From: Candidatus Portnoybacteria bacterium
GTDB lineage: Bacteria; Patescibacteriota; Minisyncoccia; Portnoybacterales; GWB1-42-6
Assembly: GCA_016208745.1 (NCBI GenBank)
Contig: JACQXN010000006.1
Span: 67-64,066 of the forward strand
Direction: 5' to 3'
Length of the DNA stretch: 64,000 nucleotides
This document shows, piece after piece, positions 19,469 through 51,138 of the stretch. How positions within the stretch are numbered: the stretch's first letter is position 1; every line of letters starts with the position of its first letter. The notes under the pieces are model-generated. The model saw nothing but the letters and a program-made list of their open reading frames with translations. It was not told where the DNA came from and did no database searches. A program made the translations under genes and the position numbers.

Positions 19469-19560
19469 GGACCCTACTAAATTACTAATCATTACCAATT
19501 TTACGAATATTAAATTTTTATTAGTAATATTAGTAAAAATTAGTAATTTAGTAGGGTCCT
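19469..19560. repeat. 22-bp-arm inverted repeat in the 23S-5S spacer (gggaccctactaaattactaat ... attagtaatttagtagggtccc); probable processing stem
   Basis: Perfect inverted repeat. Confidence 0.5.
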
Positions 19561-20520
19561 GGCAAAAATTTAGACAGATGGATGATTTATTAGTACTCCT
19601 TGGCTTAACGCATTACTGCGCTTACACCTAGAGCCTATCAACCTTGTAATCTTCAAGGAATCTACGATACCTAATCTTGGGGTCTGCTTCGCGCTTATAT
19701 GCTTTCAGCGCTTATCAGATCCATACATAGCTACTCAGCAGTGCACCGGGCGGTGCAGCTGATACACCAGAGGTATGTTCTTCTCGGTCCTCTCGTACTA
19801 GAGAAGACTCCCCTCAAGTATCCACGCCTGCAGCAGATAGAGACCAACCTGTCTCACGACGGTTTGAACCCAGCTCACGTACCTCTTTAATTGGCGAACA
19901 GCCAAACCCTTGGGGCCTTCTTCAGTCCCAGGATGAGATGAGCCGACATCGAGGTGCCGAACAGTATCGTCGATATGGACTCTTGGATACTACCAGCCTG
20001 TTATCCCCGGAGTAGCTTTTAGCCGATGATCTTCCACCTTCCTATGAAGTATGGTCGGTTCACTAAGTTCCGCTTTCGCGACTGCGCGACATGTCCGTCT
20101 TGCAGTAAAGCCAGCTTATGCCTTTACGCGTCAGGGCCGATTTCCATCCGGCCCAAGCTGACCTTGATAAACGCCTCCGTTACTCTTTTGGAGGCTAGCG
20201 CCCCACTAAAACTGCCCACCAGGCACTGTTCCCGTCCCGTTTTGCGAGACAGGTTAGAACAAAGTTTTTTAAAGATGGGTGTTTCATTGGCGGATCCATG
20301 CAGGCCGAAACCTACACTTCAAATCCTACCCACTACGCTACGCATTAAAAAACAAGGCTCAATACCAAGCTGCAGTAAAGCTTCCGGGGTCTTTTCGTCT
20401 AGCTGCAGGTACCCGGCATCTTTACCGGAATTGCATTTTCACCGAGCTCCTCGTTGAGACAGTCCCCAAGTCGTTACGCTTTTCATGCGCGTCAGAACTT
20501 ACCTGACAAGGAATTTCGCT

Positions 20521-21373
20521 CAAATGTGTTATTCTGCCCTCGACTTTAGTCAGGGCAACTCTATATATCGCTATATAGTTCGGACTATATCTTCTCCGTG
20601 ATTTGCGGAGTTTGGCGTATAGTCTCTGGGGATTCTAAAAACTTGGATGGTTTGCACCGGTTAATTTTTTCCATTAAACCGGCGATCTTTTTCATTCCTC
20701 TGTACTTAAAATGTCTTTGAGAAATCATCATTTTGACGATCTTCGCGAACACTTTAAAATCTTTTTCTTTGGCGGTTTTGAGATTATTCTTTTCAAAAAA
20801 TGGAATAATCTTTGCATTCAAATCCGAAATGGATCTAACGCAATAACGAAAAAGGGGTTCTTTATGGTTGTCGTGGCGGCGGTTGATAAATATTTTTCCG
20901 CACTCAAAGAAATTTTGAATCATTTTTAATGAATTCAAACTTTTTTCTCCTTGAGTAACTACAAACTCCGGAAAAACTTGCCAACCAAATTTTGTTCTCG
21001 CGTTACGAATCATCGTAACGGAAAAACATCCTTCACCGTCAACATAACCAACTATCCATCCGATTGTTTTTAGCCTTTCCTGCGGATTGTCTGGCGCCTC
21101 TTCCTTAAAGGGCACACTGGTAGATTTTTTACTTGGCATAATGTTTCATTTGTTATGGTAACATTATACCATAGTATCTCCAGATACTCCAGATTTTCCC
21201 GTCCCGCAAGCCTTCCCTTATTGTGAAATTGTCACAATAACGTGACTTACGGATTCCCGAAATTGCATTTTTCCTTCGCAACCATACGGCTGCGGGATTG
21301 CGATTTGTTTCCAATCGCTTCGATCTTGGACAAATCGGGAACATATAGCCAAATTTTACTAAAGCAGTTTCCT
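20521..21373 (-). mobile_element. group I intron in the 23S gene at the position equivalent to E. coli U1931 (5' exon ends ..AAAGT, the intron ends in G, the 3' exon begins AGCGAAATTCC)
   Basis: Exon junction deduced by comparison with the conserved helix 69-71 sequence; the intron carries a homing-endonuclease ORF. Confidence 0.75.
20585..21139 (-). CDS. LAGLIDADG homing endonuclease (single-motif type) encoded in the intron
   Basis: GWIVGYVDGEGCF motif in a 184-aa ORF that lies within the 23S gene. Confidence 0.85.
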   Translation of the reverse strand: MPSKKSTSVPFKEEAPDNPQERLKTIGWIVGYVDGEGCFSVTMIRNARTKFGWQVFPEFVVTQGEKSLNSLKMIQNFFECGKIFINRRHDNHKEPLFRYCVRSISDLNAKIIPFFEKNNLKTAKEKDFKVFAKIVKMMISQRHFKYRGMKKIAGLMEKINRCKPSKFLESPETIRQTPQITEKI

Positions 21374-23583
21374 ACTTTAACACGATTATAGTTATCGCGG
21401 ACGTTCACTGGCGCTTAGCACAGTGAGCCTAGACGCACATCACCACATTCAGGCTAAACTTATAGTTTTACTCTTTATTGATTGGCGAAATTGCCGTCAT
21501 ATTAAAGAGCTTGCTTAATCTTTGAAGATTAAAAAGAAAAACTACAAATCTGCACTGAACGCAGTAAAGTGCGCCCAGACCCCCATGTTTAACGTTCCAG
21601 CACTGGTCAAGCGTCAGCCCCTATACTTCCTCTTGCGAGTTTGCAGGGACCTGTGTTTTTGGTAAACAGTCGCTTGGGGTCTTTAGCTGCGGCCCAATCG
21701 CATCGCGCTATGCACGACGCATAAATTTAAAATGTAAAAATCGAAAGTCAAAATTTAAGTGTCGCTTTGTGACAAATTATAATAAATTCGCCGCAGGCGA
21801 ATACCAAAATTTTACATTTTGCCCGCCCCGCTTCGCTTGGCGAGGCCGGGGATATTTTAATTTTGCATTTAGCGTCACACGCAGTGTGATGCGATCAGGC
21901 AGGTCATATTGCGAACTTACGACACGTTGTTTTGCCGAGTTCCTTAACGAGGACTCACTCGTTCGCCTGAGGCTACTCGCCTCGCCCACCTGTGTCGGTT
22001 TTCAGTACGGTTCCCTTATTTTTGACTCTAGAAGTTTTTCTTGGCAGCTCCTTCGTCCGAATTACCCCGCCTTCTAAGCCCGTCACCAAGATCTATAGAA
22101 CAAACTATTTTTTACCTCAAAAAAATAATGTCCTATAATCTGGTCATGAGCATAGAGGGCGGGGCTTTTCTCAATTTCGGAAATTATTCTGCCGGATTTG
22201 CCTGACAGACATTCCAAAACCAAGAATGATAATCCAATAAATCACTCAGACTTTTAAACTGCGTCACTCCGTTGAAAAAATAAGGAAGTGCAGGAATATT
22301 AACCTGCTGTCCATTATCCGAGCATCTCTGCTCTAGACTTAGGACCGACTAACCCTTGGATGATAATCATTGCCAAGGAAACCTTAGGCTTGCGGCGGTC
22401 CGGTCTTTCACCGGACTTGTGGTTACTTATTCCAACATTCTCTCTTCCTAACGCTCCAGCGAACCTCACGATTCGCCTTCACAGCAGTTAGAAATGCTCC
22501 CCTACCGCCTCGCGCTCCGCACGAAGAAATCCTAAATTAAAAATTCTAAATCCGAAACAAATTCCAAATTAAAATTTCCAAATCATAAAACGAAAATTTA
22601 ATTTAATTCTTGAATTTTGATCATTTGAATTTGTTTAGAGTTTGGGATTTAGTGCTAGAATTTCCTTGTGCGAAGCACAAGACCCATATCTTCGGTACTA
22701 AGCTTAGCCCCGATAAATCTTCGGTGCAAAATCTCTAGATTAGTGAGCTGTTACGCACTCTTTAAAGGATGGCTGCCTCTAAGCCAACCTCCTAACTGTT
22801 AGAGAAACTTCACCGCCTTGTTGACACTTAGCTTAGTTTAGGGACCTTAGATGATGATCTGGGCTGTTTCCCTTTTGACTATGGAGCTTCGCCCCCACAG
22901 TCTGACTCTGATGATAAAAATCTCGGCATTCGGAGTTTGATTAGGTCCGGTAGGAAAAATCCATCCAAACCCATTCAGTGCTCTACCTCCAAGACACAAA
23001 CATCAGGCTAGCCCAAAAGCTATTTCGGGGAGAACCAGCTATTACCAAGCTCGATTAGCTTTTCACTTCTTACCACAGCTCATCCCCCAGTGTTGCACGG
23101 CTGGTGGGTTCGGGCCTCCCCCTGATTTTACTCAGGGTTCACCCTGGCCATGGCAAGCTCGCCTTGGCTTCGGGTCTTAAATGTGCTGCATATTCACAGA
23201 TCGCAAATAGCTCGTCAGGCGCAGCCCGATAAGCGATTCGCAATAAGTGAAAGTCGCGCTATTAACACTTGGTTTCCCTATATCTCCGTCCCGAAGGACT
23301 TAGAAAAAGCAACACATATAAACTCGTTGGATCGTTCTGCAAAAAGCACACGGTCACCCACACGCATCTCGCTACTCGAGATGCTAAATTAAAAGTTTAA
23401 AGTTAAAATTTAAAAGTTATTGAGTGAAAAATTTTGAGACAAAATTTTTCACGAATTCCTAAATTTTTAACTTTTCATTTTTCATTTTTAACTTAGCGCA
23501 TCTTGCCCAGCAAGATGCGCGCAGGCTCCCATTCATTGTAAGTATATGGTTTCAGGGACTATTTCATCGCCCTCATCGGGCTG

Positions 23584-23622
<39 letters not shown>

Positions 23623-23918
23623 GATATTGAGTATTTAGCCTTGGCACAATAGTCGTGCCGGATTCCGACAAGGTAGTCTTGGCCTCGCCGTACTTAAGAA
23701 CAATAACTAGGAGCATAAAACCGTTTTCGCTTACGGGGCTATTACCCTCTTTGGCACCGGTTTTCCATCCGGTTTCTGCTAACGAAGCCTTATAATTTGA
23801 TCTCCCTCTGGAACCTAATCAACAAGTCCAAGAAGTTTACCCTGAGCTTGTCGAAGGGCTCCAGAACGTTATTACCTTACAACACCCATACACCGCACAT
23901 CGCTGAGCTCTGTGCGTG

Positions 23919-24056
23919 AAATGTCTAATTTCTAATTATTCTAATTTCTAAGCAAATCCCAAATTTTTAAATATCCAATAATAAAAAGTAGTATTTTGTC
24001 ATTGGAAATTGGAAATTCATTAGATTAATTAGACTAATTAGGTCAATTAGAAATTT
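23919..24056. repeat. 138-bp AT-rich palindromic element (arms AATTTCTAATT...ACCTAATT / AATTAGGT..AATTAGAAATT) inserted at a 23S domain I helix tip
   Basis: Same family as 24154-24247, 50463-50597 and 51001-51138; complementary flanking rRNA sequences close the helix. Confidence 0.6.
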
Positions 24057-24153
24057 CGCACGAAACGCAGTGAAGTGCGGTAGATGGGTTTAGGCTCTTC
24101 CCTTTTCGCTCGCCGCTACTGGGGGAATGAGCGGTCTCGCAATCGCTCGCCGC

Positions 24154-24247
24154 AATGTCTAATTTCTAATCCCTAATTTATCTAATCCAGTCCCGCAGGG
24201 CGGGACATTTTTAGAATAATTAGGTTAATTACGAATAATTAGAAATT
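24154..24247. repeat. 94-bp AT-rich palindromic element of the same family inside 23S, with a central gtcccgc/gcgggac hairpin
   Basis: Arm sequences shared with the other family members. The flanking rRNA motif GCGGCGAGCGA is duplicated across the element, consistent with a closing helix. Confidence 0.6.
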
Positions 24248-24327
24248 GCGCGTATCGAACGATAGTGAGATCGCCTTATTTTCTTTTCCTCCGCTTACTA
24301 GAATGTTTTACTTCAGCGGGTTAACTC

Positions 24328-24618
24328 CTGCTCAGATTTTTGGAGGGGATCATATTTATAGACGATCCCCCTAATAAATTAACATGCCCTAAGGCCTGTA
24401 TCATTGTATGTGACCAGGGCCACAAATGTCTCGCCAACGATAGCCAATGCGGTCGAAAGAACTTCGGGTTGTTCTTTTTTTTCCCATTGATTAATCTCTT
24501 CTCTTAATCGTACCATTGCACCCAAAGCATTCTCTGGCGGAACTCTTTCCACAACAAATTCCATTACCATACTATGTCCTCCTTTTTCAGAATTATTTAC
24601 TCCAAAAATCTGAGCAGG
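24328..24618 (-). other. intervening sequence of about 290 nt near the 23S 5' end, closed by a 19-bp inverted repeat (CCTGCTCAGATTTTTGGAG / CTCCAAAAATCTGAGCAGG) and containing a protein-coding ORF
   Basis: The insertion lies between conserved 23S segments (..GGGGAAACCC.. and ..GAAGTAAAACAT..), and the stem is a perfect 19 bp. Confidence 0.65.
24379..24570 (-). CDS. 63-aa hypothetical protein encoded inside the 23S intervening sequence (MVMEFVVERVPPENALGAMVRLREEINQWEKKEQPEVLSTALAIVGETFVALVTYNDTGLRAC)
   Basis: AAAGGAGG lies 7 nt upstream of the ATG. The longer track ORF 24379..24669 would read through conserved rRNA. Confidence 0.5.
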   Translation of the reverse strand: MVMEFVVERVPPENALGAMVRLREEINQWEKKEQPEVLSTALAIVGETFVALVTYNDTGLRAC

Positions 24619-24948
24619 TATACCGATTTTATCGGTATGGGTTTCCCCATTCGGATATCCCCGGATCAAAGCTTGCTAGACAGCTCCCCGAGGCTTAACG
24701 CAGTCACGCCACGTCCTTCATCGCCTCAATATCCCTAGGCATCCACCATACACCCTTAGCCATCTGTCTAAATTTTTGCCCCCAAGCCAAAGCTTGGGAT
24801 TGCCACGCTAAGCGCGGCCTAGATGACTAATAATTAAGTAACCATTAACGTTATCTGATTCTCTAATTTCACCCCGTCCCACAATACATTTGTGGCGGGG
24901 TTCTTTTATACCTGCTATATTCAATTTTCAAGTTGCTATCATTTTTCA

Positions 24949-24988
24949 TCAGCGGAAAAATGATAAATTTTTATCATTTTTCCGCTGA
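24949..24988. repeat. 40-bp perfect palindrome (tcagcggaaaaatgataa-attt-ttatcatttttccgctga) in the rRNA operon leader or upstream region
   Basis: 18-bp arms. Confidence 0.5.
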
Positions 24989-25179
24989 CACCCATAAGCC
25001 TTATGAGTCCTATCGGTCCTATTTTGAAATAAAAATCCGCTTCTTCTGGAAGCGGCCCGCTAAAACCAAAACGCAAACAAGACGTCTTTTATCCGCTTCC
25101 TTTATTTAATCTGGTGATATTTAACTTCATATTTTGGTTTAACATTCTTCTATCACGCCTAGCGTGATCTTCGTCCCTC

Positions 25180-25207
25180 ATTTTATCAAATTGACAGAGC
25201 CTGTCAA
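25180..25207 (-). promoter_or_regulatory. candidate sigma70-type promoter for the 23S-5S operon (TTGACA-N16-TAAAAT on the minus strand) within a TTGACAG/CTGTCAA palindrome
   Basis: -35 at 25202-25207 and -10 at 25180-25185, both on the minus strand. Confidence 0.5.
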
Positions 25208-28539: not shown

Positions 28540-28583
28540 AAATTTGCCAGTTAGTATGCTATAGCATACTAACTGGCAAATTT
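28540..28583. promoter_or_regulatory. 44-bp perfect palindrome with core AGTATGCTATAGCATACT, downstream of 28614..29225
   Basis: Perfect 22-bp arms; the core is shared with 29194-29226. Confidence 0.5.
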
Positions 28584-28613: not shown

Positions 28614-29225
28614 CTATAAATCAAAAATGTTTTTTAAATACAAATCATTATCTATCTTCTCTATTACGCCATAAAGTATATGGGGTTTTATTTGATAAAA
28701 TTCCGCGATAAAGTTAATTTCGTCTTCGCATTCAAACGGATGCACAAAGACACTTTTCTGTAATTCGTGGAATCCTATCTTTTTTAATCTGAACCTGAAA
28801 GCATCCCGCGCCATTTTTTGTTCCTCCGGAATGTCAAAAATTACAATCCTCCATTTTCTATCCCAAGCCTGCTTCTTAATTCTCATATCTTCTAATTGGT
28901 ATTTTAACGCCTTTGTTTTTCCATTGTCAGCCAAAACCATTGAAATAACGCCATCTCTATCCGTTTTTATATTAACTAACTTTGACCGATATAGTTCTCT
29001 TATATCTTGTTTTATTCTATCTTCTTTTATTTGTTTCCACCCTTTTCCAATTGCTTTTACTATATGAAATTGCCGTTCCGGGGAACGGTTAAGACAAAGA
29101 GCAGCGCCGCCCATCAATATAAGTAAAATTTTCTTTTTGTTGGTATTTAAATCACTCACTTTATTTATTTTTATTATACGCCATATCAATTTTGGAGTAA
29201 ATATGCTATAGCATAGTAACTCCAA
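28614..29225 (-). CDS. protein with a C-terminal Cas2/VapD-like domain (IVIFDIPEEQKMARDAFRFRLKKIGFHELQKSVFV) and an N-terminal possible winged-helix domain; PaaX-like architecture; flanked by related palindromes
   Basis: The C-terminal pattern resembles the Cas2/VapD fold signature (hh.YDh...RR.kh.k.L..yG.R.Q.SVF). Palindromes sit at the start and 30 nt after the stop. Confidence 0.4.
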   Translation of the reverse strand: MELLCYSIFTPKLIWRIIKINKVSDLNTNKKKILLILMGGAALCLNRSPERQFHIVKAIGKGWKQIKEDRIKQDIRELYRSKLVNIKTDRDGVISMVLADNGKTKALKYQLEDMRIKKQAWDRKWRIVIFDIPEEQKMARDAFRFRLKKIGFHELQKSVFVHPFECEDEINFIAEFYQIKPHILYGVIEKIDNDLYLKNIFDL

Positions 29226-29226
29226 A
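29194..29226. promoter_or_regulatory. palindrome ttggagtaaATATGCTATAGCATAgtaactccaa overlapping the start of 28614..29225; candidate operator
   Basis: Core TATGCTATAGCATA is shared with 28540-28583. Confidence 0.45.
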
Positions 29227-29290
29227 AAACACAGAAGAGACTCTCATTGTATGTTATATTTGATCTAATCATGGGTAATATTGTAAATAC

Positions 29291-30010: not shown

Positions 30011-31069
30011 TTACAGCGCCACAATCTCTTCCCAAGGCAACCCCTCTTTGCCAAAATGTCCATAAGCAGCGGTTTGGCGGTAAATCGGCCGGCGGAGATT
30101 CAATCGTTCAATAATCGCCTGCGGCCGGAAATCAAAATTCTTATTCACTATTTCATCAATGCTCTCCCCTTTTTCATTAATCGCCTCAACCATTAAAGGT
30201 TCAACGCGGCCGATGGCATAAGCCACTGAAACTAAACATTTTTTAGCTAGGCCATTAGCCACAATATTTTTGGCGGCAAAACGAGCCATATAAGCGGCTG
30301 ATCGATCAACTTTTGTCGGATCTTTCCCAGAAAAAGCGCCGCCGCCATGCGGAATTAAACCGCCATAAGTATCAACCATAATCTTTCTGCCGGTTAAGCC
30401 GGTGTCAGCCTCAAACCCGCCCTGCACGAATTTGCCGGTTGGATTAACTAATATTTCGGCGCCATTGTAATCTTCTTCGTCAAAAGCCGATTTAATTACT
30501 TTTTCAATAATTTCTCTTTTTATATCATCTTGCGAAACCGAATCGCTATGCTGACAGCTAACTAGAATTTTTTCTGTGCCGTGGCTGTTAATAGTTACCT
30601 GCGATTTACCATCTGGAAAAAGCCAGGTGGCTTGGCCACTTCTCCTTAATTTTTCTAAACCTTGCGCCAGTTTATGCGCCATAACAACTCCTTTGGGCAA
30701 AAATTGAGAAGTTTCATCTGTCGCATAACCATACATAATGCCTTGATCTCCGGCGCCACCCGTATCAACTCCCTGCGCAATGTCGGGCGATTGCTGGACA
30801 ACATTAGTAATAACTTTTAACTCGTTCTGATGGCCGATATCGCGATAAACCTGTCGGCCAAGATTGGCAAAATCAACTTGCGCGTTAGTTGTCAGCTCGC
30901 CGCAAATAACTAATATCCCGTGTCCGCCAAAACTTTCAATGGCAACTCTGCTTTTTGGGTCTTGCCTTAAACATTCGTCTAAAACAGCATCCGAAATCTG
31001 ATCGCAGATTTTATCCGGATGCCCCGAGGTAACGCTTTCAACTGTATACATCTTTGTGCTGTATGTCAT
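30011..31069 (-). CDS. metK: S-adenosylmethionine synthetase
   Basis: GHPDKICDQISDA, GAGDQGIMYGYA and GGGAFSGKDPTKVDRS motifs; the true start may be the internal MYTVESV. Confidence 0.95.
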   Translation of the reverse strand: MTYSTKMYTVESVTSGHPDKICDQISDAVLDECLRQDPKSRVAIESFGGHGILVICGELTTNAQVDFANLGRQVYRDIGHQNELKVITNVVQQSPDIAQGVDTGGAGDQGIMYGYATDETSQFLPKGVVMAHKLAQGLEKLRRSGQATWLFPDGKSQVTINSHGTEKILVSCQHSDSVSQDDIKREIIEKVIKSAFDEEDYNGAEILVNPTGKFVQGGFEADTGLTGRKIMVDTYGGLIPHGGGAFSGKDPTKVDRSAAYMARFAAKNIVANGLAKKCLVSVAYAIGRVEPLMVEAINEKGESIDEIVNKNFDFRPQAIIERLNLRRPIYRQTAAYGHFGKEGLPWEEIVAL

Positions 31070-31154: not shown

Positions 31155-31292
31155 AAATCTTTCCACGCGGAAAGATTTCTCTAAAATTATCTTTCCCCCG
31201 TGGGGCTAGAGTTGGCACCTCTCCTTCAATTATTTGAAGAAGGTTGTCGGCAGGTCATAGGGCTAGTTCCCTCGCTACACTCTGTAATAATT
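31155..31292 (-). promoter_or_regulatory. SAM-I (S-box) riboswitch with an intrinsic terminator, in the metK leader
   Basis: Minus-strand sequence ..TTATTACAGAG..GCGAGGGAACTAGCCCTATGACCTGCCGACAACC..GGTGCCAACTCTAGCC..AGATAA matches the S-box consensus. It is followed by the hairpin aaatctttcc-gcgt-ggaaagattt and a T-run. Confidence 0.7.
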
Positions 31293-31299
31293 ATTTTAT

Positions 31300-50456: not shown

Positions 50457-50462
50457 CTGAAA

Positions 50463-50597
50463 AATTTCTAATTGACCTAATTTCTAATTGATTTAATCAA
50501 ATCCCAATGATTCAATAATTAATGCTAAATTAATTCCGGGATTTGGGTATTGGGAATTTTTTAAAATAATTAGGTTAATTAGAATAATTAGAAATTT
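50463..50597. repeat. 135-bp AT-rich palindromic element (AATTTCTAATTGACCTAAT.. / ..ATTAGGTTAATTAGAATAATTAGAAATT), same family as the 23S insertions
   Basis: Terminal inverted repeats and internal ATCCCAA..TTGGGTATTGGGAATT segments are shared with 23919-24056 and 51001-51138. Confidence 0.6.
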
Positions 50598-50598
50598 C

Positions 50599-51009: not shown

Positions 51010-51138
51010 TTTCTAATTTCTGATAAAGATCCCAATGACTAATGTCAAAAAATTCAGGCATTTAAAAATTAGATATTTATTGGATATTGGATATTGGAAA
51101 TTATTTAGGTCAATTAGAAATTAGGTTAATTAGAAATT
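51001..51138. repeat. 138-bp AT-rich palindromic element of the same family
   Basis: Arms aatttccaatttctaatttc.. / ..ggtcaattagaaattaggttaattagaaatt. Confidence 0.6.

Follow-up and report, generated by a model that had tools for sequence, protein, structure and literature searches.

A stem-closed cassette carrying a small open reading frame at the tip of helix 10 in the 23S rRNA gene of a Candidatus Portnoybacteria genome, and its relatives in other rRNA operons

We have analyzed a 64,000-nt stretch of DNA (hereafter the window) from a Candidatus Portnoybacteria bacterium (assembly GCA_016208745.1, contig JACQXN010000006.1, positions 67 to 64,066), whose 23S ribosomal RNA (rRNA) gene is interrupted by an insert at the tip of helix 10. 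The insert is closed by a perfect 19-bp stem and contains, in the rRNA sense, an open reading frame (ORF) of 63 amino acids (aa) behind a consensus Shine-Dalgarno (SD) sequence. The same frame, with different ORFs inside, is present at helix 10 of two relatives and at other sites of rRNA operons belonging to the candidate phyla radiation (CPR). We lean toward the reading that the insert is a self-contained mini-gene cassette resembling an intervening sequence (IVS), which would be excised at its stem and released as a small messenger RNA (mRNA), and whose cargo would be interchangeable. The protein-coding inserts known from bacterial rRNA so far encode either homing endonucleases of introns or the S23p protein of IVSs excised by RNase III, and the expression of S23p is doubtful. 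The weight of the present finding lies not in a single odd ORF but in its family context, namely a fixed frame, swapped cargo, several sites and a cargo under selection.

Position and structure of the insert

An earlier reading made from the letters of the sequence alone (the sequence-only reading) had pointed to an insertion in the 5' domain of 23S rRNA, near helix 9. We placed the 5' domain on the basis of a covariance-model alignment (cmscan), since a pairwise MAFFT alignment of the whole 23S against E. coli misaligned this domain. The alignment bears out the domain and shifts the site by one helix: a 272-nt gap lies in the loop of the second hairpin 3' of AAUGGGGAAACCC, and the stem of that second hairpin is itself matched by the outermost ~9 bp of the inverted repeat. 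The E. coli counterparts of the two hairpins after AAUGGGGAAACCC are helix 9 (131-148) and helix 10 (150-176), and the insertion site is the loop, or tip, of helix 10, directly 3' of helix 9. The host gene is 5,200 nt long as against 2,925 nt for the model, having about 14 insertions that amount to ~2.3 kb. The rRNA, the 63-aa ORF and its ribosome-binding site (RBS) share one sense, all being on the minus strand.

The closing stem is formed by CCTGCTCAGATTTTTGGAG at 24327-24345 and its exact reverse complement at 24600-24618, with 254 nt separating the arms; the sequence-only reading had recognized this perfect stem and set its start one position too late, at 24328. These arms are the sole perfect long-range inverted repeat of at least 19 nt within the window, and the chance expectation for an 18-mer of the arm with up to three mismatches is 0.10 occurrences. 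Folding of the cassette region gave -99.4 kcal/mol, with z = -5.97 against dinucleotide shuffles. The ORF and its well-spaced RBS, as well as the internal hairpin, had been noticed earlier and are found as described: GGAGG (24578-24582) lies 7 nt ahead of the AUG of the ORF at 24379-24570, the ORF ends 7 nt before the GC hairpin, and the hairpin (GGGGGAUC..GAUCCCC) abuts the 3' arm. A permissive Rfam search of 24320-24625 for known RNA families returned chance-level matches only (E >= 0.76), with no intron family. Positions of these features are collected in Table 1.

Table 1. Features of the cassette, its host gene and its surroundings (window coordinates)
Feature	Position	Strand	Remark
Whole cassette including both arms, 292 nt	24327..24618	minus	Tip of helix 10
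5' arm of closing stem in RNA (CCUGCUCAGAUUUUUGGAG)	24600..24618	minus	Outer ~9 nt form the helix-10 5' strand
A-rich unstructured leader, 29 nt	24571..24599	minus	SD sequence AAAGGAGG at 24578-24585
63-aa ORF (MVMEFVVERVPPENALGAMVRLREEINQWEKKEQPEVLSTALAIVGETFVALVTYNDTGLRAC)	24379..24570	minus	Orphan; rRNA sense
3' GC hairpin (GGGGGAUCG..loop..GAUCCC)	24346..24371	minus	Stacks on 3' arm in minimum-free-energy and centroid folds
3' arm of closing stem (CUCCAAAAAUCUGAGCAGG)	24327..24345	minus	Perfect 19-bp inverted repeat
Helix 9 hairpin (AUACCGAUAAAAUCGGUAU)	24620..24638	minus	1 nt 5' of the cassette; same in L004 and L066 (cmscan)
Host 23S rRNA gene	19570..24769	minus	Rfam RF02541 bacterial LSU, 2133 bits, model 1-2925
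Promoter-like site TTGACA-16-TGnTAAAAT, 11/12	25180..25207	minus	~410 nt upstream of 23S; consensus match only

Since rRNA regions of metagenome-assembled genomes (MAGs) are prone to misassembly, a small gene might have been mis-joined into an rRNA contig. Such an artefact is rejected on the basis of two independent Logan assemblies (SRR12113398 and SRR12113406), which are 100% identical across the cassette and its flanks, the matches covering 3.6 and 2.1 kb with the flanking genes, the leader and the cassette. The insert is, moreover, precisely bounded by complementary arms that complete helix 10, and the architecture recurs at the identical nucleotide in relatives that come from unrelated studies; a chimera is hardly conceivable.

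Coding signs and homology of the 63-aa ORF

Codon usage was scored by log-odds, the model having been trained on 31 long ORFs from the window. The 63-aa ORF scores 0.436 bits per codon in its own frame, compared with -0.38 and -0.45 when read in the two others; for reference, 63-codon windows of real genes have a mean of 0.291 (standard deviation 0.123), and the top of 41 shadow ORFs reaches 0.258. Dinucleotide shuffling of the interior produced a sense ORF of at least 63 codons in 81 of 5000 cases (1.6%) with no SD sequence demanded, and under the same condition the chance of the ORF length is 0.3-1.6% of shuffles per cassette across the three helix-10 cargoes explained below. The other large inserts of this 23S, which are AT-rich low-complexity hairpins, contain no sense ORF of at least 25 aa, an intron encoding a LAGLIDADG protein excepted. 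We favour the 63-aa ORF as a gene because its gene-like codon usage is confined to its own frame, its length is rare by chance, and the other inserts are free of ORFs.

The predicted protein, which includes the segments VPPENALGAMVR, EEINQWEK and EQPEVLSTALAIVGETFVALVTYNDTGLR, has no relative in the databases searched. A word-indexed search of 5.8e9 clusters found only the protein itself, in one copy, which a Candidatus Portnoybacteria MAG lists as a hypothetical protein, and an exhaustive HMMER search of 1.84e9 representatives found itself and a low-complexity eukaryotic repeat protein that we judged spurious. There was no match in Pfam, NCBIfam, PHROGs, PADLOC or PDB sequences, and the Pfam and NCBIfam profiles, including S23p / 23S_rRNA_IVP (PF05635), gave nothing even at E <= 10; as a positive control from the same rRNA gene, ORF 20585-21139 matched LAGLIDADG_1 of Pfam at 8.7e-24. 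The domain searches thus detected no LAGLIDADG, GIY-YIG, HNH or His-Cys box domain in the cassette ORF, and the sequence-only reading had likewise seen no likeness to the first three. An AF2 model (predicted local distance difference test score 73.6) has a helix at 12-32 and a beta-hairpin. Fold comparison, which had been suggested earlier, sets the protein apart from the 23S intervening-sequence protein, and its fold matches are otherwise generic only.

The same frame at helix 10 of relatives

We scanned one genome per species for the lineage-typical motif of helix 11, which gave 51 loci, mostly of Patescibacteria, 45 of them measurable, and a metagenome scan added 12 loci (numbered with the prefix L). 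A look at this site in other CPR 23S genes, advised in the sequence-only reading, proved fruitful: the distance from helix 8 to helix 11 is 43-57 nt, corresponding to no insert, in most loci, and inserts are present in nine of the 45 measurable loci, the window included. Two loci, L004 and L066, have the exact helix 9 of the window and 5' flanking rRNA that is ~94% identical, and their helix-10 cassettes sit at the same nucleotide as that of the window. They are closed by a stem of 17-18 bp (CCTGCGCTTATTAGGGG / CTCCTAATAAGCGCAGG), their leaders are A-rich with AAGGAGG or AAAAAGGAGG, and the GC hairpin abuts the CTCC arm. Between the window and L004 the insert aligns over three parts, namely the stem, the leader (AAATAA..AAGGAGG.ACATA) and the hairpin; in the hairpin the loop CGTCT is retained and the stem changes are compensatory. 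The ORF does not align.

The cargo differs among these three. The ORF has 63 aa in the window, 77 aa in L004 and 69 aa in L066, and each begins 5-8 nt after AGGAGG and ends just ahead of the hairpin. No significant similarity was found among the three proteins (top pair p = 0.04 before correction for three comparisons); Smith-Waterman scores of cargo pairs against shuffles are almost all non-significant, and hhalign of the window ORF against other cargo gave nothing. The sole hint is between the L066 helix-10 ORF and an ORF in an L004 intron (BLASTP E = 0.006, 37% over 41 aa). We also considered that the cargo ORFs might be circular permutants, and a doubled-sequence test was negative. The L004 and L066 ORFs are orphans as well, without family or convincing fold match, and the codon usage of the L004 ORF, judged by the table from the window, is gene-like.

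Occupancy of the site is polymorphic. Helix 10 is filled in the window, L004, L066 and L055, empty in L009 and occupied by a different hairpin in L005; contents differ among the window, L004, L066, L055, L005 and L038, and the site is empty in most of the 45 loci. An insert of the L038 type, found in four loci, has the inner stem AGATTTTTGGAG in common with the window, the inner part of the 5' arm, AGAUUUUUGGAG, being common to these insertions. The L005 contig (DATEXU010000017.1) is labelled Thermodesulfobacteriota, and its 23S is the closest to the window's among the loci examined; it has the CPR-type inserts, the intron and the leader cassette as well and is probably mis-binned.

The frame at other sites of rRNA operons

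A search of the relatives' loci for a second kind of arm, type B (ACCTGCGCTTATTAGGGG / CTCCTAATAAGCGCAG), found further pairs. In the Ec~1931 intron of L004, type-B arms enclose AAAGGAGG, a 65-aa ORF and a hairpin (GGGCGTC..GACGCCC), and a second unit of the same intron has a third arm type with a 21-bp stem (ATTGCGTATCCAAATTTGGTT / AACCAAATTTGGATGCGCAAT), an SD sequence, a 73-aa ORF and a stacked hairpin. These two tandem cassettes (locus positions 150-830, the minus strand being the rRNA sense) occupy the slot of the window's LAGLIDADG gene. The Ec~1931 insertion of the window (20521-21373, 853 nt) carries that gene as ORF 20585-21139 on the minus strand; its product has 184 aa and a single LAGLIDADG_1 domain. 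No group I intron family passed the gathering threshold of Rfam there, and the region is ~87% identical in L005.

The type-B frame is found also in the 23S leader of L005, L009 and L066, downstream of a promoter-like TTGACA-16-TGnTAGAAT. These leader cassettes (L009 1725-2058, L005 3113-3413 and L066 1-466) contain a conserved 73-aa orphan ORF (MARKQGYVRILKRHDRYIAEIIK...), and the L066 stem holds a second SD-led ORF of 60 aa with CxxC...CxxC. Between L009 and L066 the 73-aa ORF has 10 synonymous and 1 non-synonymous differences, the ratio of non-synonymous to synonymous rates (dN/dS) being 0.02, and dN/dS is 0.18-0.21 for the remaining pairs. The leader ORF is clearly under purifying selection; therefore the frame does carry real genes. 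Neither the intron nor the leader cargo proteins matched a known family. The leader site, filled in these three, is empty at the homologous position in the window and L004. As for the promoter-like site of the window in Table 1, a counterpart is present in the leaders of L004 and L005, and by its consensus match it is likely the source of the cassette-carrying transcript. Downstream of it the window's leader has a perfect 19-bp hairpin (24949-24988) and a terminator-like hairpin with a T-run (25037-25055), the latter kept in L004, L005 and L009, where it marks the insertion point of the leader cassette.

From these copies we have defined a family of stem-closed SD-ORF cassettes of CPR rRNA operons. 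Its frame is a near-perfect stem of 16-21 bp, an A-rich leader with an SD sequence, one (rarely two) ORFs of 60-85 aa and a GC hairpin on the 3' arm. Every element is present in the window cassette, and likewise in L004 (three copies), L066 (two), L005 and L009. All cassettes carry AGGAGG-type sites, and every family member has the stacked 3' hairpin with compensatory stem changes. When the interior is exchanged for a tetraloop all frames fold identically, and wherever the arms depart from Watson-Crick pairing, which is at three independent positions, the pair is G-U when read in the sense orientation. An unbiased search for ORFs of 35-140 aa that follow an SD sequence and are enclosed by no fewer than 13 consecutive pairs was run on the window and 63 loci. 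Of the nine ORF-bearing cassettes it found seven; it missed the leader copy of L009, whose 3' arm lies just outside the 110-nt search window, and that of L066, which the contig end truncates. In the 64-kb window only the helix-10 cassette had a long stem.

The window has no type-B arms and a single type-A pair, that at helix 10; the coverage is the full 64 kb here and the rRNA regions in the relatives. Every copy that we class in the family, even when it was picked up by its arm sequence alone, has the orientation of the rRNA and belongs to an rRNA-operon transcript, its site being helix 10, a group I intron or the 23S leader. The outer stem CCTGCGC, which is like that of helix 10, weakly suggests that the type-B leader and intron copies may derive from a helix-10 copy. 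Two other leads were dropped: a phage link, as type-B arms are absent from IMG/VR and the type-A 16-mer occurs there as single unpaired chance matches, and a 14-nt match to the junction of arm and leader at window 29190-29227, which is coincidental, being part of a palindrome beside an ordinary gene.

These copies allow two alternatives to be weighed. One holds that the insert is a non-coding IVS or expansion, in which the ORF and the RBS-like motif are fortuitous or belong to the RNA structure. It can draw on the facts that all three helix-10 ORFs are orphans, that the ORF is not conserved among homologous insertions, two frames having none, and that the IVS ORF of Coxiella is decaying and probably unexpressed. 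The sequence-only reading, too, had looked to homologous insertions for a conserved ORF; L004 and L066 keep the frame and the RBS, whereas their ORFs are unrelated and the L055 and L038-type inserts have no sense ORF. We do not take this as refuting a coding role, because the codon usage is gene-like in frame only, in L004 as in the window, because SD-adjacent ORFs of improbable length fill three independent interiors up to the hairpin while other inserts of the same 23S, intron aside, lack any, and because another cargo of the same frame is under strong purifying selection. A non-coding insert is thus very unlikely.

The other alternative is a mobile element acting at the DNA level, in which the arms are terminal inverted repeats or recombination sites, the enzyme is encoded elsewhere, the ORFs are passengers and the RNA stem is a by-product. 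Identical 16-nt type-B arms occur at three kinds of site in five genomes, the leader site and helix 10 are polymorphic for presence and absence, the cargo is swapped between ~94% identical rRNA backgrounds, and the copies with arms and no ORF (L055 and L038-type) recall miniature inverted-repeat transposable elements (MITEs), all in keeping with such an element. However, no direct repeats or target-site duplications flank any copy, no transposase or integrase accompanies the copies, and no cargo contains a known domain. A DNA transposon, furthermore, need not respect the rRNA sense in which every classed copy lies, the mismatches are G-U in the sense RNA, and a third arm sequence with the same architecture argues for selection on structure, not on a DNA site. 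We judge a mobile element of this kind improbable, and as regards expression it is compatible with the cassette being a mini-gene.

Proposed expression and exchange of the cargo

The cassette appears to be built for expression from the rRNA precursor, because it combines a conserved frame, an SD sequence, coding signs and sense orientation, and because the same long stems stand in the 23S leader. It would be transcribed from the rRNA promoter within pre-23S RNA, where the long stem would hold it apart from the rRNA and double as a processing site for a double-strand-specific nuclease of the RNase III type. Cleavage in the 19-bp stem would release an RNA of ~270 nt, its ends still paired and its 3' end capped by the hairpin, and ribosomes would start at the exposed SD sequence, on this RNA or on the nascent precursor, to make the 63-aa protein. 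The 23S rRNA would be left as a ~160-nt 5' piece and the remainder, joined by helix 10, which is the topology of eukaryotic 5.8S/25S rRNA.

Concerning the cargo, the protein of the leader ORF stays 86-98% identical among orthologues, whereas the helix-10 cargoes are unrelated at comparable rRNA divergence; because of this difference the helix-10 cargo was most likely replaced and did not simply drift. The interior would be swapped between the conserved flanks, and we infer recombination as the mode. A further-reaching picture, which we offer tentatively as a possibility, is that the rRNA operon of one CPR lineage serves as an expression platform for a pool of exchangeable mini-genes that travel, each with an RBS and a 3' hairpin of its own, in the cell's most heavily transcribed RNA, with stable mRNAs cut at their stems, swaps between genomes mediated by the flanks, and, helix 10 being one favoured site, a bacterial 5.8S-like/23S split at the place of internal transcribed spacer 2 (ITS2).

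The insert may otherwise be an expansion segment that contains a genuine gene and is never excised, its stem insulating the folding of helix 10 and domain I; the ORF would then be translated, if at all, from nascent pre-rRNA, and the mature ribosome would have a surface extension of ~290 nt. The outer stem is helix 10 itself, ~13 other helix-tip extensions in the same 23S resemble expansion segments, CPR 23S genes often have many insertions whose fate is unresolved (PMC11270868), and the coding signatures fit equally. In the leader, however, the long stems stand where no host helix is in need of insulation. Insulation calls for far less than 17-21 perfect base pairs and a stacked hairpin, and translation of the ORF in the assembled subunit is implausible, which would confine expression to a brief co-transcriptional window. 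A retained segment seems to us unlikely, and we continue to prefer the excised mini-gene.

Several points weigh against this preference. We infer excision, the enzyme and translation. The Coxiella IVS ORF, which has a poor SD sequence, is probably untranslated in vivo, and the excised RNA is quickly degraded (PMC4990558). Helix 10 is not among the classical IVS sites (helices 9, 25 and 45). The window ORF is without a homologue, so that its coding case draws on codon usage, the SD sequence and parallels with the other cargoes. A stem can be kept even when it holds no cargo: L055, which has the same stem with ~80 nt inside, has no ORF, and inserts of the L038 type have no sense ORF. The near-identical type-B arms across genomes could be DNA-level recombination sites and not an RNA processing signal. 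The restriction to rRNA operons is established for the window's 64 kb, the relatives being represented by rRNA regions. No RNase III gene is present in the 64-kb window, which says nothing of the rest of the genome.

Comparison with known systems

The closest mechanism on record is that of IVSs excised by RNase III, and by analogy with these we regard the cassette as a candidate for excision. The sequence-only reading had named Coxiella and Leptospira as the usual examples; the comparison holds for a possible way of working and fails for family membership, as the protein is not of the S23p / 23S_rRNA_IVP family. As in S23p-type IVSs of Leptospira, Coxiella, Brucella and Xanthomonas, the ORF is in the rRNA sense, presence is sporadic among close relatives, and rRNA continuity at the site is evidently dispensable (PMC4990558). 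A helix terminal loop is likewise replaced with an extended stem-loop bordered by complementary sequences. Canonical IVS sites are helices 9, 25 and 45 (PMC4990558), whereas the cassette is at helix 10, and the same 23S has AT-rich extensions at helices 25 and 45. Whereas the S23p family protein has ~115-130 aa and forms a four-helix bundle, the product here has 63 aa, no Pfam match and a predicted alpha+beta fold of one helix and a beta-hairpin. The SD sequence is of consensus strength, unlike the poor one of Coxiella, the cargo varies between close relatives, and the frame occurs also in the 23S leader and an intron. A sense ORF in an IVS excised by RNase III would rank among the most abundant transcripts of the cell (PMC4990558).

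Group I introns of rRNA with homing-endonuclease genes resemble the cassettes in that a small, autonomous ORF, closed by a helix, lies within structured RNA of an rRNA operon and depends on the host transcript for its expression. The cassette has neither intron structure nor an endonuclease motif, and 60-85 aa is too small for known homing endonucleases. Insertion sequences in CPR rRNA were reportedly described by Brown et al. in 2015. Our case shares with them the host clade, the many insertions per 23S at recurrent sites and the presence of LAGLIDADG group I introns (Ec1931 in the window). According to Tsurumaki et al. (2024), 82% of CPR 23S genes contain inserts, which fall at 14 recurrent sites. 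Their ORF annotation relied on Pfam alone (LAGLIDADG, GIY-YIG and 23S_rRNA_IVP), with the others left as 'uncharacterized ISs', and they presumed that RNase III acts on the short non-intron insertions located at IVS sites (PMC11270868). In the papers that we consulted we found no description of stem-closed, SD-led orphan mini-genes with a shared frame at several operon sites.

Helix 10 is equivalent to the 'ITS2-proximal stem' of the 5.8S 3' end and the 25S 5' end (PMC3884665, PMC5513064). The cassette has the same topological position as eukaryotic ITS2, and its excision would leave a ~160-nt 5' fragment of the size of 5.8S rRNA. There is no sequence relationship, and ITS2 is non-coding and removed by a eukaryote-specific process, so that the parallel is positional only.

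Integron cassettes are also small, mostly orphan, promoter-less ORFs swapped at a fixed and highly expressed site, a resemblance of function only: there is no integrase, no attC/attI and no cassette array here, and the arms flank the ORF instead of following it. Inspection of the window ORFs of at least 150 aa, which were not profiled, made no integrase evident. Correia elements have terminal inverted repeats that fold into RNase III-sensitive hairpins when transcribed. The cassettes differ from such MITE/Correia-type elements in coding and in having no target-site duplication, and membership is not supported. The early mRNAs of phage T7 are said, after Dunn and Studier, to be cut from a polycistronic transcript by RNase III. 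Stem-loop cleavage of a long precursor that is transcribed at a high level, giving discrete mRNAs with stabilizing hairpin ends, is what we propose here by analogy; the host transcript differs in being an rRNA precursor.

Significance

A conserved RNA frame with a consensus RBS carries different small orphan genes in closely similar rRNA backgrounds. Should the cassettes prove to be excised and translated, genome-reduced bacteria would be using their rRNA precursors as mRNA sources too, small genes would be exchanged horizontally by way of rRNA genes, and pipelines that mask rRNA or accept Pfam-positive ORFs only would miss this class of gene. The location at helix 10 provides a natural bacterial system for studying the effect of a spacer at the ITS2 position on assembly of the large subunit. 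If the inserts are retained, CPR ribosomes would have unusually large and sequence-variable surface extensions.

Other inserts and neighbouring features

The other large inserts of the window's 23S lie at 22518-22672 (helix 45), 23366-23520 (helix 25), 23891-24082 and 24131-24278. They are AT-rich low-complexity hairpins of short motifs such as TAATTAGAAATT and TTAAAAATGAAAA, and behave as dispersed elements: the helix-25 insert is found again in L005, both in helix 10 (95% over 57 nt) and at a second site, the helix-45 insert recurs in helix 10 of L008, and motifs of 24131-24278 and 23891-24082 recur in intergenic hairpins of the window at 50457-50598 and 51010-51129. The spacer between 23S and 5S rRNA contains an AT-rich hairpin with 41-nt arms (19469-19559).

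Inserts closed by perfect 20-bp arms with a TTTTTGG-like core are present in L008 (4116-4456, after Ec~1954) and L015 (220-568, Ec~270 to 305). On the strand antisense to rRNA they have a near-consensus promoter (TTGACA-17/18-TACAAT/TACACT), the SD sequence GGAGGTGA and a small hydrophobic ORF, of 65 and 61 aa respectively. The arrangement recalls type I toxin genes, the rRNA precursor being a possible antisense partner. The L008 insert has in addition an 85-aa SD-led ORF in the sense orientation.

Elsewhere in the window, a SAM (S-adenosylmethionine; S-box) riboswitch (31184-31293, minus strand, 51.5 bits) lies upstream of ORF 30011-31069 (minus strand), whose N-terminus resembles S-adenosylmethionine synthetase. 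Two near-perfect palindromes at 28540-28583 (22+22 nt) and 29190-29227 (~19+19 nt), having the common core (A/T)ATGCTATAGCAT, flank a 203-aa ORF at 28614-29225 on the minus strand.

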